Shown here one piece after another: positions 22 to 5,480 of a stretch of 64,000 nt of DNA. A program made the translations under genes and the position numbers. The stretch covers positions 43,903-107,902 of the forward strand of contig JACQYW010000015.1 of NCBI GenBank assembly GCA_016208015.1, given 5' to 3'. The notes under the pieces are model-generated. The model saw only the letters and a list, made by a program, of their open reading frames with translations. It was not told the DNA's origin and did no database searches. Source of the stretch: Nitrosomonadales bacterium (GTDB lineage: Bacteria > Pseudomonadota > Gammaproteobacteria > Burkholderiales > Gallionellaceae). Position 1 is the stretch's first letter. Each line of letters opens with the position of its first letter.

Positions 22-417
22 TTACCACTCTTGCGGCAGCCGGTATCTTTCCGGCAACAGGTCGAGGATCTCGCGCTGCACCACGATGTTGTGCTCTTCG
101 TAGAGTGGCTTGCCGCACAACGGCATCTTTTCCTCAAAAGATTCCACGGCCTTCTCGCCCTGCCAGACCCAATCGACCGGGAGGCAGACATCGGGCATGC
201 GTTCGCTGGGGAACTCCGATTGCACGACCCCGATGGCCTTGATATGCAGGTCAGACAGTGAGGTGCAGTGTTTGATGAAAACGATGTCTTCCTTGTGGAA
301 GGGGGCGACGACGTAACGCAGATCCGTCTTGCCGTCCGCAGTGTGGGGCAGGCACACCGTATGCCTGTCGATGAAACCTTGCGCATCGCGCTCTTCGAAT
401 CCGAAAAAAGTGGCCAT
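22..417 (-). CDS. Hypothetical protein (~131 aa), downstream of and co-oriented with the cbb3 genes
   Basis: ORF 22..486; likely start at ATG 417 (MATFFGFEE). No family recognised. Confidence 0.55.
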   Translation of the reverse strand: MATFFGFEERDAQGFIDRHTVCLPHTADGKTDLRYVVAPFHKEDIVFIKHCTSLSDLHIKAIGVVQSEFPSERMPDVCLPVDWVWQGEKAVESFEEKMPLCGKPLYEEHNIVVQREILDLLPERYRLPQEW

Positions 418-458: not shown

Positions 459-686
459 TCACATCGGGCCCACCGGGGCGCTCCAATAGGTGACGAGGTA
501 ATACACACCCCAGACCAGCAAGGAAACGACGACGAACCAGAGCCAGACCGGCACGTTGCCTTCGCGTTCCGTAATACCTGCACTGGCATAGTTGTAAACG
601 GCTTGCCCCTGCTCGTTAACAGATTGCTCGCCGGAATTCTTTCCGGTTCCAATGCCTGTATCGATCGGATTTTCAGTCATGGCCAT
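459..686 (-). CDS. 75-aa membrane peptide resembling the N-terminal (FixP_N) segment of cbb3 subunit CcoP
   Basis: YASAGITEREGNVPVWLWFVVVSLLVWGVYYL aligns by eye with the CcoP motif (W/Y)DGIxExDNPLPxWW plus a TM helix. Overlaps the stop of the upstream oxidase gene. Confidence 0.7.
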   Translation of the reverse strand: MAMTENPIDTGIGTGKNSGEQSVNEQGQAVYNYASAGITEREGNVPVWLWFVVVSLLVWGVYYLVTYWSAPVGPM

Positions 687-3600
687 CTTCCTTTCCCGGT
701 TTTGGCGGTGTCGATGACGGGTATCCCGGGACGGTCCACCTGCACTACCTGCGCATCGATCTGACCGTGATCAGCCGCCTCGGATAGCGAAGCCCAGATC
801 CTTGCGCGCGCATCCGCCAACTGCAATTTCGTGCCGGCCGCTTTCGCTTCCAGCGGCCCTCCCGCCGAGCAGAAGTTGATAATGGGCAATACCACGTTGC
901 TGCACGCGGCGAGCAGCCAGGGCACGCTGGAAGTGCAGAAGTTCGCGGCCTGTTCCGGTTCGGTCATCCCGGCTTGCTTCAGCGACGCGAGATGCGCATC
1001 CACCCGCAGTGACTGCATGTAATGCACGATGTCCCAGATCTGTTCCGGCGTGAACGTGCCCGCAAAGGCCGGCATGGGCGTGCCGCCGACGCCGGTCATG
1101 ATGGTCCTGTAGACATGACGTCCGTCGTGGCCAAGTTTGACACCACCCGGCGCTCCGGCGGGCAGGGTGAAGTTGGCGGGATTGACCGGGTTGCCCCACA
1201 TATCGGAAAAGACGCCCGCAGGCATGCCATCGCCGAGCCCGCCCAAGCCGTGGCAGGCGGCACAGATGGTGTCGAATTGCTGTTTGCCGCGCGCGATCGA
1301 ATCCACCGACACCGGCGGCTCATCGCCGACCGGCACGGGCGCACCGGGGCGCGCCGTTCTCCAGCGCGCAGAGAAGGTCTTGATGTACTGGATGACGGCA
1401 AGACGTTCCTGCACCGGAATGTCGAACCAGGACGGCATCGCGGTTCCCCACAGTCCGTGGCTGATCGTAACGAACAGGTCCCCGTCCGAGGGCAGCGAAT
1501 TCGCATCGCCCGCGGTCGAGCGGAACTTGAACGTGCCGGTCGTGAAATCGCGCGGTTTCGGGTTCATGAAACGGGCGGACGGACCGTTGCCGTCGCCTTT
1601 CTCGCCATGGCAACCAACGCAGCGGCGCAGGTAGACCTGCTTGCCGCGCGGCAGCAGATCCTGCATCGTTTCCGTGTAGCTCGACCGCAAAGCGGCCCCG
1701 GAGGTCAGTCGCGTCGACACGAAGGTCTCGCGCCAATCGCCGATCGAGGTGCCGAGTTTTTGCAGATAGGCAACCAGCGCCAGCCCGTCCTCGTTGAGTT
1801 GCGGAGCGGTCTTGCCGTCGCTGTCCTTGAACAACCAGGGGAAGCGCGGCATGACCGAATCCGGCACGACATCGCGCGGATTCCAGTGATGCGCGGCTTG
1901 CCAATCGTCGCCGTATTTCCCGCCGACGCGCAACAGGTCGGGGCCGATCCGCCGCGTGCTGAGCATCTGCGGCTGGTCGTACACATATTCACCCGCCTGC
2001 GAGACCGGTCCCCAGCGCAGGTTCTCTCCCGTCACCGGGCGCACATATTGCGAATGGCAATACCAGCAACCTTCGCGGATATAGACCTGCCTGCCCCTGC
2101 GTTCCTGCAGCGTGTAATCGGCGACCTGGATGATCTGTCCGCTGCTCGCGGAAACGACCGTGGGGTTGTAGGTCTGCGGCAGGATGGAAGGCAGGATGCC
2201 CTGGATCAGCACGGCCAGAAAGAAGAACGCGATACCGGCGACGATGAACACGCCGGAGGGGCGGCTGTACCAGGTCGCCCCGACTGCGGCAGGGCGCGCT
2301 TCGGAAACGGCCAGCAGCGCGCTATCCGCGATCATCTCGAACGGCACACCCTCGCGCGCCGTCATGACCAGATTGACCGCCATCAGGAGCAAGCCGAGAT
2401 CCATCGAGGCGCCCGCCAGCGTGCGCGCGAACCACCACGGTTTCATCTCGACCACCGAGTCGACGAAGTTCGCGCCGTATTCGAGCATGCTGCCCTGGAT
2501 GAAACCCTGCGCGGCCAGCCCCGCCAGCATGATCGTGGTGCCGGCGATGGTCAGCCACACATGCCAGCTCGCTAGCTTGGCGCTCCACAATCGGCGTCCG
2601 GTCACGCGCGGCCACACGTAATACATGCTGCCCACCGCCGCCAGCACGAAGGTGGCGAACACGGTGAAGTGCGAATGCGAGATGACGAAGTCGGTGAAGT
2701 GCGTGAGTTCCTGCACCCGGCGCAGCGCTTCGGTCGATCCCTGGAAGCAGCCGACCAGATAGAAGAAGGTCGCCAGCAGCAGGAACTTGGCCGCATAACT
2801 GTCCGCATCGTTGCCGCCCACGATGGCGCCCCAGCGCCCCCTGGCGGTGCCGAACAGGTTGGTGATCACCGCCCACACCGGGATGATGAGCATCATGCTG
2901 GTGACGATGGAGATGGTCTGGTTGTGATACGGAATGGGGCTGAACAGGTAGTGGTGCGTGCCGACGAAGGGATAGAAGAACGCCAGCGCCCAGAAGCCCA
3001 GCAACGACAAGCGATGGCTGTACAGCGGCGCTCTCGCGGCTAGCGGCAGGAAGTAATACATCAGCGCCAGCCCCGCAGGCGTGATCCACAGTCCGACCAC
3101 ATAGTGGATATAGAGTCCGTGCAAAGCGGCATTGCTGATGCCGGACATCGGCACATAAGGCAGCACGACATTGCCGAGGATCAGGTTCATCGCCGTCCAC
3201 ACCAGCGCCGCCAGCGTGTACCACAGCGCGACGTAGAAGCCTTTTTCCTTGCGCGTGAATATCGTCGCCAGGACCTGGTAGCCGATCGCAGCCAGGATGA
3301 TCCAGCGCAGGATATTGATCGGCCATTCATACTCGCCCGCCTCGAAACCGGTGTTGTACCCCATCATCAGGGAGAGGGAGCCGGCGACCAGAAAGAAATT
3401 CCAGCCCCACAGCAACGGCCATCCCCAATGTTCCTTGACCATGGGGCGACCGCACAATCGCGGCACCAGGTAATACAGCAGGCCGAGCACGGGCGTGGAG
3501 AATGCGCCGAAGATGACGCCGTTGACATGCACGGGTCGCAGGCGTCCGAACGTCAGCCACGACGTCTCACCGAGGAAATCCGGGAGATGGAATTTGATTG

Positions 3601-3769
3601 AGACGAGCAGGCCGACCAGCGGGAAAACAGACAGCCAGGCGAGCGACCACCACAGCCAGGCACGCACCAGATATTTGTTTACGAGTCCGGTTACATCGGG
3701 CGCTTGCGACAAACTATCCGCCGCGTTTGCATCCCAGGCATCCATGTTGCGCAATCGTTGGTCAGGCAT
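677..3769 (-). CDS. ccoNO: cbb3-type (C-family) cytochrome c oxidase: subunit I + subunit II + dihaem cytochrome c fusion
   Basis: CcoN motifs FGRLRPVHVN, HYVVG, FYPFVGTHH, HSHF. CcoO motifs GRQVYIREGCWYCHSQ, RRIGPDL, VPDSVMP. Further CVGCH and CAACH. RBS GGAGGAG precedes ATG 3769. Confidence 0.9.
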   Translation of the reverse strand: MPDQRLRNMDAWDANAADSLSQAPDVTGLVNKYLVRAWLWWSLAWLSVFPLVGLLVSIKFHLPDFLGETSWLTFGRLRPVHVNGVIFGAFSTPVLGLLYYLVPRLCGRPMVKEHWGWPLLWGWNFFLVAGSLSLMMGYNTGFEAGEYEWPINILRWIILAAIGYQVLATIFTRKEKGFYVALWYTLAALVWTAMNLILGNVVLPYVPMSGISNAALHGLYIHYVVGLWITPAGLALMYYFLPLAARAPLYSHRLSLLGFWALAFFYPFVGTHHYLFSPIPYHNQTISIVTSMMLIIPVWAVITNLFGTARGRWGAIVGGNDADSYAAKFLLLATFFYLVGCFQGSTEALRRVQELTHFTDFVISHSHFTVFATFVLAAVGSMYYVWPRVTGRRLWSAKLASWHVWLTIAGTTIMLAGLAAQGFIQGSMLEYGANFVDSVVEMKPWWFARTLAGASMDLGLLLMAVNLVMTAREGVPFEMIADSALLAVSEARPAAVGATWYSRPSGVFIVAGIAFFFLAVLIQGILPSILPQTYNPTVVSASSGQIIQVADYTLQERRGRQVYIREGCWYCHSQYVRPVTGENLRWGPVSQAGEYVYDQPQMLSTRRIGPDLLRVGGKYGDDWQAAHHWNPRDVVPDSVMPRFPWLFKDSDGKTAPQLNEDGLALVAYLQKLGTSIGDWRETFVSTRLTSGAALRSSYTETMQDLLPRGKQVYLRRCVGCHGEKGDGNGPSARFMNPKPRDFTTGTFKFRSTAGDANSLPSDGDLFVTISHGLWGTAMPSWFDIPVQERLAVIQYIKTFSARWRTARPGAPVPVGDEPPVSVDSIARGKQQFDTICAACHGLGGLGDGMPAGVFSDMWGNPVNPANFTLPAGAPGGVKLGHDGRHVYRTIMTGVGGTPMPAFAGTFTPEQIWDIVHYMQSLRVDAHLASLKQAGMTEPEQAANFCTSSVPWLLAACSNVVLPIINFCSAGGPLEAKAAGTKLQLADARARIWASLSEAADHGQIDAQVVQVDRPGIPVIDTAKTGKGRWP

Positions 3770-4121
3770 ATCTCCTCCCAACTTCGAACATCGTTATCAC
3801 CGCCCCGAGCGGTGGCGGCGGCGAACATGGGATTCGCCTGTCACTCAGTTATGCCATGCTGAACAACATCATTGAAAGGATATGGGGAAGGTGAGTAACC
3901 ACTCATCTGCCGGGCATGGCAACAGCGACTACCGGACTTCGCGGATGTTGTAGAAACCATCCAGAGTAGACATCCTAAGAAGCCGGATTATTTTTGTCAA
4001 CTATTGCGGCGTGACTCCATGCGGGAGTGACAGATATTGAGTTGTGAAGCAGTATCGATTTGGTGGGACGGCGCCTGTATATATGGTGTGGCAATCAGCA
4101 GAATCGCCCCGGCGATGTCGA

Positions 4122-5480
4122 TCAGTTGTGTTCATAAAAACGAACCCGATTCCGTCCAGCCTCCTTGGCTTGATACATGGCCGCATCGGACTGCTTGAGT
4201 ATCTCGTTATGGTTCGCGTCGCGGTTGATGAAGAGCGAAACGCCGATGCTCGATGTGCAGTGATGTTCTATCTGTGTTTCCTTGCGGTCTTCTGCTTCGG
4301 GATTCAGGAGATACGGCGCAGCAAGCGCGACGCGGATCTTCTCGGAGATGGCCATGGCCAAACCGGTGGCCTCGGTTTTTTCCTTGCTTAATTCGCTGAC
4401 CAGGACAACGAATTCATCGCCACCGATGCGCGCGACGGTATCGACTGCCCGCAGGCAGGAAGTGAGGCGGCGCGCGACTTCGACCAGCAGAAGATCGCCA
4501 ACGGCATGCCCGTGGCTGTCGTTGAGCGGCTTGAAGTTATCCAGATCGATGTACATCACGGCCCCGTAACGTTCGCTGCGCTTGCTCGCAGCCAGCGACT
4601 GGTTCAGCCGGTCATCCAGCAGGCGGCGGTTGGGAAGCTGCGTCAGGGGGTCGTGGAATGCGAGTTCTCGTACGAGCGCTTCCTGCTTCTTGCGTTCGGT
4701 GATGTCGAGGAAGGTGGCAATCGCTCCCACCACAACGTCATCCCGCAGAATGGGTTTCGACCAGTATTCCACCGGGATGGAAGTCCCGTCCTTGCGCCAG
4801 AACACTTCATCCGAGACATGGATGTCCTGATGGCGCTGATAAGCCGCATACATCCGGCATTCCGTGGCCGGATAGGGGCGGCCGTCCGCGTGCGAATGGT
4901 GTATGAGGCCGTGGATATGCTTGCCGATGATCTCTTTGGTGCTTTCAAACCCGAGAATCTGCATGAATGACTTGTTCACGAAGGTGCACATGCCATCGGT
5001 ATCCACGCCGTAAGCGCCCTCGGCCATCGAATTGAGCAGCAGATCCAGCTTCTCATGCGATTCGCGCAGATCGAATTCGGCCTGCTTGCGCCGGGTGACA
5101 TCGTCATAGATCGCGACGACTTCACCTGTTGGCAAACGATATACATAGTTCTCGCGCCAACCGGTGATCCGGCTGTCCTCGTAATAGCTGGCAGGGAAAT
5201 GCTGTGGCTGTCCGGTCTTCCAGACGCGCTTCAGAATGGGAAGAAAGCCGAACTCTTTTACTCCGGGGAAGCAATCCGTCAATCGTTTCCCGATGACCGC
5301 TTCGCGTTCCAGCTTATCCAGTACTTCGGCAGAGCGGTTGAAGTCCAGAAAGATGAAATCATCGCCGCCGTCTATCGCGGCATACACGGCCACACAACTG
5401 CTCATGTGCTGGAACAACTCGCGAAACAAGGCCTCGCTATAGGCGACGCGGTTCAATTCCGCTTCCTTGGGATTTTGCAT
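4122..5480 (-). CDS. PAS-PAS-GGDEF diguanylate cyclase
   Basis: Two PAS-like domains, HDPLTQLPNRR, RxxD I-site, intact GGDEF. Confidence 0.9.
   Translation of the reverse strand: MQNPKEAELNRVAYSEALFRELFQHMSSCVAVYAAIDGGDDFIFLDFNRSAEVLDKLEREAVIGKRLTDCFPGVKEFGFLPILKRVWKTGQPQHFPASYYEDSRITGWRENYVYRLPTGEVVAIYDDVTRRKQAEFDLRESHEKLDLLLNSMAEGAYGVDTDGMCTFVNKSFMQILGFESTKEIIGKHIHGLIHHSHADGRPYPATECRMYAAYQRHQDIHVSDEVFWRKDGTSIPVEYWSKPILRDDVVVGAIATFLDITERKKQEALVRELAFHDPLTQLPNRRLLDDRLNQSLAASKRSERYGAVMYIDLDNFKPLNDSHGHAVGDLLLVEVARRLTSCLRAVDTVARIGGDEFVVLVSELSKEKTEATGLAMAISEKIRVALAAPYLLNPEAEDRKETQIEHHCTSSIGVSLFINRDANHNEILKQSDAAMYQAKEAGRNRVRFYEHN

Follow-up and report, generated by a model that had tools for sequence, protein, structure and literature searches.

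A stand-alone, haem-less FixP_N protein encoded beside CcoO-dihaem genes, probably an unannotated small subunit of a cbb3 oxidase variant

Near the start of the window (the whole stretch analysed, 64,000 nucleotides of a contig from a Nitrosomonadales bacterium of the Gallionellaceae), two minus-strand genes overlap. The longer one encodes CcoN, CcoO and a dihaem cytochrome c of a cbb3-type oxidase in a single polypeptide, and the shorter one, which follows it directly, encodes a small, predicted single-pass protein, here called the microprotein. The features of the locus are as follows.

459..680, minus strand: microprotein gene, 73 codons plus a TGA stop, its likely true extent (open reading frame list, sequence, homologue N-termini, dN/dS)
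684..686, minus strand: ATG (686-684), an in-frame alternative microprotein start two codons upstream of ATG 680
677..680, minus strand: ATGA overlap of the microprotein start and the stop of the CcoN-CcoO-dihaem gene (sequence)
687..694, minus strand: Shine-Dalgarno-like AAAGGAAG (read directly from the sequence)
549..596, minus strand: FixP_N-like loop Y29-N-Y-A-S-A-G-I-T-E38-R-E-G-N-V-P44 (Pfam and TIGR matches, PDB profile alignment, hhalign)
567-569, minus strand: codon of Glu38
480..548, minus strand: predicted single transmembrane helix V45-S67, VWLWFVVVSLLVWGVYYLVTYWS (AlphaFold2 and conservation)
677..3781, minus strand: 1034-residue CcoN-CcoO-dihaem cytochrome c fusion of a cbb3-type oxidase (Pfam COX1, FixO and two Cytochrom_C domains)
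3972..4000, minus strand: candidate promoter of sigma-70-like type, TTGACA-17-TAGGAT, some 190 nt ahead of the fusion gene (consensus scan only)

The original prediction placed a peptide of 75 residues directly downstream of the fusion gene and overlapping it, and the two reading frames, 459..686 and 677..3781 on the same strand, are arranged in just this way. The full frame 459..686 encodes MAMTENPID...YASAGITEREGNVPVWLWFVVVSLLVWGVYYLVTYWSAPVGPM, ending in ...YNYASAGITEREGNVPVWLWFVVVSLLVWGVYYLVTYWSAPVGPM, and its start probably lies two codons further in. The AAGGA Shine-Dalgarno-like box (AGGA core) is 8 nt from the ATG at 680 and only 2 nt from that at 686, the second ATG (680-678) overlaps the TGA stop of the fusion gene as ATGA, and the N-termini of all 15 close homologues read MTE, MTD, MNE or MI. 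Because of these three features, translation most likely begins at ATG 680 rather than 686 and yields 73 residues, and residues are numbered here in the 73-residue form. Exactly this product is a called protein (P0001) in a public collection. The expectation that annotation pipelines would easily overlook the gene was therefore right only as regards its name: gene callers do find it, and the source annotations give neither the microprotein nor any relative examined a functional name, just 'hypothetical protein'.

The four-nucleotide ATGA overlap recurs in two other loci (L005, L006), and in five more (L007, L008, L009, L013, L026) the microprotein start abuts the last sense codon of the upstream gene. 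The overlap suggests that translation of the microprotein is coupled to that of its upstream neighbor. No terminator-like site was found between the fusion gene, the microprotein gene and the next open reading frame, and promoter-like sites picked up by the consensus scan, the candidate at 3972..4000 among them, are no more numerous than expected in shuffled sequence. That next frame (22-417, minus strand) encodes a soluble protein of 132 residues (MATFFGFEERDAQ...) that has no Pfam match and only a weak DUF8426 assignment in precomputed tables. It lies downstream of the microprotein in a Gallionellaceae subset only, sometimes 1.5-2 kb away, and was for that reason rejected as part of a conserved oxidase core. 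Upstream of the oxidase operon lies a PAS-GGDEF diguanylate cyclase gene (4122-5480, minus strand); the metagenome locus L005 has a MASE1-PAS-GGDEF gene in the matching position.

The linkage of the microprotein to the oxidase was examined in both directions and at the level of whole genomes. Searching with the fusion protein, one genome per species, gave 78 loci from Gallionellaceae, other Burkholderiales, Steroidobacteraceae, Zetaproteobacteria, Nitrospinota, Nitrospirales, Methylomirabilota/Rokubacteria, Tectomicrobia and Acidobacteriota/Thermoanaerobaculia, about eight phylum-level lineages. A same-strand match to the close-family microprotein profile is present at 77 of these, and at the 78th (L037), where the contig end cuts the copy short, it was a wider profile that revealed it. 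Among 301 genomes of the order, six match the close-family profile at E<=1e-5, each match falling a few hundred bases from a CcoO-dihaem gene, and in each of two further genomes that have a CcoO-dihaem gene the wider profile detects a microprotein. The microprotein is present in 8/8 genomes with a CcoO-dihaem gene and in 0/293 of the others; none was found in the roughly 208 genomes that have canonical CcoO only. In the reverse direction, metagenome contigs scanned with the microprotein profile gave 33 loci, six of them at contig edges and counted as uninformative, and same-strand oxidase genes lie nearby in 23 of the 25 informative loci. Constant linkage to the oxidase, as would be expected of a subunit, was thus found at all 78 loci and in all eight genomes.

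Two gene layouts account for this linkage. In the first, the oxidase gene or genes are followed by the microprotein gene, often with the same four-nucleotide overlap. In the second, seen in Acidobacteriota and Steroidobacteraceae, the order is a free dihaem cytochrome, the microprotein (54 residues), separate CcoN, CcoO-dihaem and CcoS; in acidobacterial clusters the free cytochrome is an extra copy of the dihaem module (L039:2824-3666). Because the Acidobacteriota keep CcoN as a separate gene, with the microprotein upstream of it, the constant partner is the CcoO-dihaem gene and not the CcoN-CcoO fusion. The co-occurrence proposed at the outset, with fusions of CcoN, CcoO and cytochrome c, accordingly stands for the oxidase as such, while the fusion of CcoN turns out to be dispensable to the association.

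Several loci call for separate mention. Two metagenome matches (L146, L149) are false positives in which the profile had recognized helix 1 of CcoN. This helix (window about 3640-3700, minus strand; LVRAWLWW...) resembles that of the microprotein closely enough to mislead MAFFT as well, a likeness that we judge to be a chance similarity between aromatic-rich transmembrane segments. In L143 and L150 a relative stands on a short contig with no visible oxidase gene, and the edge case L134 shares the layout of L143. In both L143 (588-743) and L134 (174-401), on contigs of 1.1-1.6 kb with no oxidase gene in view, the relative is flanked on one side by a mono-haem cytochrome c and on the other by a periplasmic protein that contains a haem-like CHE motif, and these loci may represent a second context for the family. 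Apparent natural fusions did not hold up: the 1112-residue oxidase-microprotein frame of L029 (2989-6324) has a tail frameshifted into the microprotein frame and is most likely an indel artefact of long-read assembly, and the long dihaem-microprotein frames of L042, L046 and L070 arise where the upstream gene is read through out of frame.

A short reading frame with a sub-threshold Pfam score and relatives that are all 'hypothetical' might be taken for a chance frame, or for a decaying ccoP remnant that yields no product. Three observations contradict this reading: (i) Over a 39-codon core of 16 Gallionellaceae-type copies, the median dN is 0.15, the median dS 1.15 and the median dN/dS 0.13 (93 pairs). 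(ii) The gene is conserved across some eight phylum-level lineages in a fixed position beside the oxidase. (iii) The overlap at its start is itself conserved. The chance or remnant reading is effectively refuted, and the gene is real and under purifying selection. Conservation is unevenly distributed, since the 15 close homologues (61-75 residues) share 22 invariant positions that all fall within the C-terminal 45 residues, and the N-terminal 28 residues vary freely. When 1.84 billion representative proteins were searched exhaustively with a profile, 122 clusters were recovered at E<=1e-3, nearly all of them stand-alone proteins of 46-130 residues.

The conserved part of the microprotein consists of a loop followed by a helix. 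In an AlphaFold2 model of the monomer, built from the close-family alignment, residues 45-67 form one helix with block pLDDT values of 89-96, residues 1-26 are disordered (pLDDT <50), and the motif region reaches a pLDDT of about 59 in a peptide modelled in isolation. Across the wide family, conservation reaches 90% or more at five helix positions (W46, L47, W57, Y61 and W66). Because the N-terminal tail is acidic (net charge about -5), the positive-inside rule gives no verdict on topology. Homology, the one guide to orientation here, most likely places the N-terminal loop in the cytoplasm and the short C-terminus in the periplasm; the N-terminus of canonical CcoP, as seen in R. capsulatus, is at the n (cytoplasmic) face (PMC7876108). 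Microproteins of the Tectomicrobia-type loci (L031:6140-6460, L034:6146-6466) are longer, about 105 residues, with a second C-terminal transmembrane helix, and in L150 (1920-2072) a helix like this second one is encoded as a separate small frame.

The original prediction held that the peptide carries the N-terminal membrane segment of CcoP and proposed a search with the FixP_N model. That search gives a weak match, 20.1-20.2 bits (E ~5e-4) against a gathering threshold of 24.9 bits for Pfam FixP_N (PF14715), so that by score the single protein falls outside the family; FixP_N is nevertheless the only Pfam family below E=0.01 for the microprotein. At the level of the family the signal is stronger: 101 of 133 members match FixP_N at E<=0.01 (best 6e-9), and no other family comes close in these 133 relatives. 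The TIGR00782 ccoP model matches at E=7.8e-5, with the alignment confined to profile positions 16-52. When the close-family profile is compared with the PDB, the two best matches are CcoP chains (3mk7_C and 9g83_v), with the alignment covering residues 42-76 of 3mk7_C. With the wide-family profile the best four are CcoP chains, at E=1.7e-7 to 1.1e-5, scores to which three haem-bearing members contribute.

We also built a reference alignment from genomes of the class to which this bacterium belongs, comprising 27 canonical CcoP N-termini, and compared the family with it directly. In hhalign, the wide family freed of its haem-bearing members aligns to this reference over 55 columns with a probability of 81% (P=1.2e-5), and the profile-to-profile similarity thus holds at the wide-family level; the close family taken alone gives a weak result (P=0.002, probability 13.5%). 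Every comparison returns the same register, the one put forward in the original prediction, in which A-G-I-T-E38-R-E-G-N-V-P44-V-W46 is set against D-G-(I/D)-(I/L)-x-E-x-N-N-P-L-P-x-W, and the loop Y29-P44 as a whole corresponds to canonical D-G-[ID]-[IL]-x-E-x-N-N-P-L-P. Within the helix, W57-G58-x-x-Y61-L-x-x-Y65 falls on canonical (F/W)-(G/A)-x-x-Y-L-x-x-Y. The FixP_N motif can therefore be read in the microprotein itself, as AGITE38REGNVP44VW...W57G58VYY, where the acid precedes P-x-W by six residues; the alignment to 3mk7_C 42-76 and to the 27 canonical CcoPs holds residue for residue. We regard the homology with FixP_N as solid for the family and borderline for the single protein.

The same comparisons set limits on classification. 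The microprotein has no cysteine and hence no CxxCH motif, as the original prediction had noted, and it has no haem domains; its TIGR00782 score, 22.1 bits, is far below the cut-off of 179.95. FixQ (PF05545) gave no match to the microprotein at E<=1 and none to any of the 133 relatives at E<=0.01. Since it qualifies neither as CcoP nor as a relative of CcoQ/FixQ, the microprotein is best filed, on its sequence, as a divergent FixP_N-only protein.

The glutamate of the GITE motif, singled out in the original prediction, is Glu38, and in the PDB profile alignment (3mk7_C residues 42-58) it falls on residue 49, also Glu, of P. stutzeri CcoP. In C-family oxidases, which have a single proton channel, Buschmann et al. 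2010 and Ahn et al. 2014 reportedly place the entrance of that channel at CcoP Glu49. Of the 27 canonical CcoPs, 26 have Glu at the equivalent position and one has Asp, the exception being the canonical CcoP of this very genome, encoded on another contig (L001:1441-2319; DDDLGDFTNQPPKWW). Among 80 oxidase-linked homologues of the microprotein, 64 have Glu at the position aligned to Glu38, and the other 16, from Methylomirabilota, Tectomicrobia and some Burkholderiales, have A, S, V, T or G there, with the acid (Asp or Glu) displaced three residues upstream. An acidic residue in the loop is kept in all 80. This pattern is compatible with a needed carboxylate, yet it weakens a strict one-residue model; a proton-entry role for Glu38 is plausible.

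Of the two cbb3 systems in this genome, one is a canonical CcoO-CcoP gene pair on another contig and the second is the CcoN-CcoO-dihaem fusion of the window. The fusion is matched by NCBIfam PRK14485 and PRK14486 ('bifunctional cbb3 subunit I/II' and 'subunit II/cytochrome c'), and a FixP_N segment within its 1034 residues was sought at E<=1 with no match. Its dihaem module (962-1819, minus strand) finds its best solved relative in 6h5l_B (146 bits, E=1e-41), chain B of the entry 6H5L for a HAO-like enzyme, a Kuenenia stuttgartiensis protein deposited under the name 'conserved hypothetical cytochrome protein'. The PDB matches of the module at E<=1e-3 include no CcoP haem domain, and in the sole match with CcoP in its name the part matched is the cyt cy of an engineered CcoP-cy fusion. 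Beyond the dihaem domain the fusion has a tail of about 100 residues (approximately 935-1034; window about 677-980, minus strand) with a hydrophobic stretch (VPWLLAACSNVVLPIINF) and three cysteines, which only close relatives match; distant homologues end near residue 925-946.

These matches bear on how the microprotein arose. According to the original prediction, ccoP was literally split, with its two haem domains moved to the end of CcoO and its N-terminal helix left behind as a gene. Such an event would leave a free FixP_N segment while a dihaem module sits on CcoO, and the second cytochrome domain of the fusion does show a weak TIGR00782 match (35 bits). The module, however, is closest to the 6h5l_B family, and the similarity between it and the CcoP of the same genome amounts to 28.9 bits, local to the CxxCH motif. 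The gene order, with haem domains first and the anchor after them, is also unlike the product of a simple cut in ccoP, and the Acidobacteriota have a free paralogue of this module ahead of the microprotein. The module appears to belong to another cytochrome family and is not demonstrably derived from CcoP; the transfer of haem domains from CcoP to CcoO finds no support here, and a literal split is improbable.

Other members of the family allow more than one history. In three metagenome relatives (P0104, P0107 and P0115) the FixP_N module is joined to just one cytochrome domain, and the 16 most divergent microproteins end in Y-W-G-G-L-G-P-G, resembling the Y-P-G-L-G that follows the helix in many canonical CcoPs. 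Both features would suit equally well a loss of haem domains or a fusion of anchor and cytochrome. A tentative possibility, which we put forward with considerable reserve, is that the free FixP_N microprotein represents an ancestral subunit at the entrance of the proton channel, that CcoP arose later by its fusion with a dihaem cytochrome, and that the mono-haem proteins are intermediates. If this were true, the textbook 'third subunit' of cbb3 oxidases would be a chimera of two originally independent parts.

Taken together, the evidence from sequence and gene context indicates that the microprotein is probably an unannotated small subunit of a widespread CcoO-dihaem variant of cbb3 oxidase. 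The periplasmic dihaem module, fused directly to CcoO, needs no membrane anchor of its own, yet the anchor persists as a separate, strongly constrained gene, which speaks for an anchor function that does not depend on haem attachment. In canonical oxidases the CcoP helix contacts CcoN, cytochrome b and CcoH, and CcoH cross-links to both CcoP and CcoN; in R. capsulatus the CcoP helix and helices 8-9 of CcoN flank the bc1 interface (PMC7876108). We infer that the microprotein binds the oxidase physically. The 73-residue, single-pass protein would be translated by coupling to the upstream gene, its helix would pack on CcoN at the usual site of the CcoP helix with the N-terminus in the cytoplasm, and the carboxylate of Glu38 would then be placed at the cytoplasmic mouth of the single proton-input channel. 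The protein may also stabilize the oxidase complex or help to assemble it, and electrons would enter through the unrelated dihaem module fused to CcoO. As a whole, this account of a stand-alone, haem-less FixP_N subunit that occupies the CcoP-helix site and sets Glu38 at the channel mouth is the best explanation we have, and we consider it likely, with room for doubt.

The main rival to this account is a purely structural subunit or assembly factor, which would serve stability or the docking of CcoH-type factors or of a bc1/ACIII supercomplex and take no part in proton uptake. Structural roles of this kind are reported for CcoQ, CcoM and CcoH. There is a precedent in CcoM, a single-helix cbb3 subunit whose loss affects stability only (PMC4742706), and the place of the CcoP helix at the bc1-cbb3 interface, together with its cross-link to CcoH, points the same way (PMC7876108). 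The glutamate is not strictly conserved (64/80), and the best-conserved residues are aromatics along one face of the helix. On the other hand, within the close family the loop Y-x-Y-x-S-A-G-I-x-E-R-x-G-x-V-P is as well conserved as the helix, and the acidic loop residue is never lost among the 80 homologues. We find a purely structural role rather unlikely, and a structural function would in any case be compatible with the preferred explanation, in which Glu38 lies at the channel mouth.

Comparison with known systems helps to define what is new. The microprotein and the N-terminus of CcoP/FixP (PF14715; P. stutzeri 3MK7 chain C, 42-76) share the same loop-plus-helix module within a cco cluster, with G-I-x-E-x-(D/E)-x-x-(L/V)-P-x-W, a helix (F/W)-G-x-x-Y-L-x-x-Y and an acid six residues before the Pro. 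Unlike CcoP, where the module heads a cytochrome subunit, the microprotein stands alone at 73 residues, lacks haem c domains and cysteines, scores below the Pfam cut-off, and is encoded after the catalytic genes (before them in Acidobacteriota). CcoQ (FixQ) and CcoM are likewise small, single-pass and associated with cbb3 oxidases, with a likely stabilizing role (PMC4742706), but neither is related to the microprotein in sequence and neither has the G-I-x-E loop. The catalogued fusions PRK14485 and PRK14486 represent a partner gene of the same kind, and their models cover the large polypeptides only. The mono-haem FixP_N-cytochrome c proteins P0104, P0107 and P0115 share the N-terminal module, and the microprotein profile picks them up; unlike the microprotein they keep one CxxCH cytochrome domain, and for this reason they stand between the microprotein and the dihaem CcoP. 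In the 'distal cbb3' clusters of Sideroxydans ES-1, ccoN and ccoO are separate, so that these are not obviously of the CcoO-dihaem type. The oxidase fusions (NCBIfam) and the FixP_N domain (Pfam) are already known. Full-text searches, with most subscription journals outside their reach, returned no account of a free-standing FixP_N subunit that CcoO-dihaem oxidases would have as their obligate partner. A FixP_N-only partner of this kind is real, conserved and useful, and not categorically new.

The oxidase variant occurs in microaerophiles of ecological importance, among them iron oxidizers (Gallionellaceae, Zetaproteobacteria), nitrite oxidizers (Nitrospinota, Nitrospirales), Methylomirabilota and Acidobacteriota. 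With its small partner recognized, at least 122 clusters (at 50% identity) of metagenome proteins that had no name acquire one, and anyone expressing a CcoO-dihaem oxidase or solving its structure would need the microprotein on the parts list. Canonical CcoP bundles electron entry, through its haem domains, with a membrane segment thought to form the entrance of the only proton channel. With that segment on a 73-residue gene of its own, proton uptake, assembly or supercomplex docking would become separable from electron transfer, by deletion of the gene or by substitution of the glutamate.
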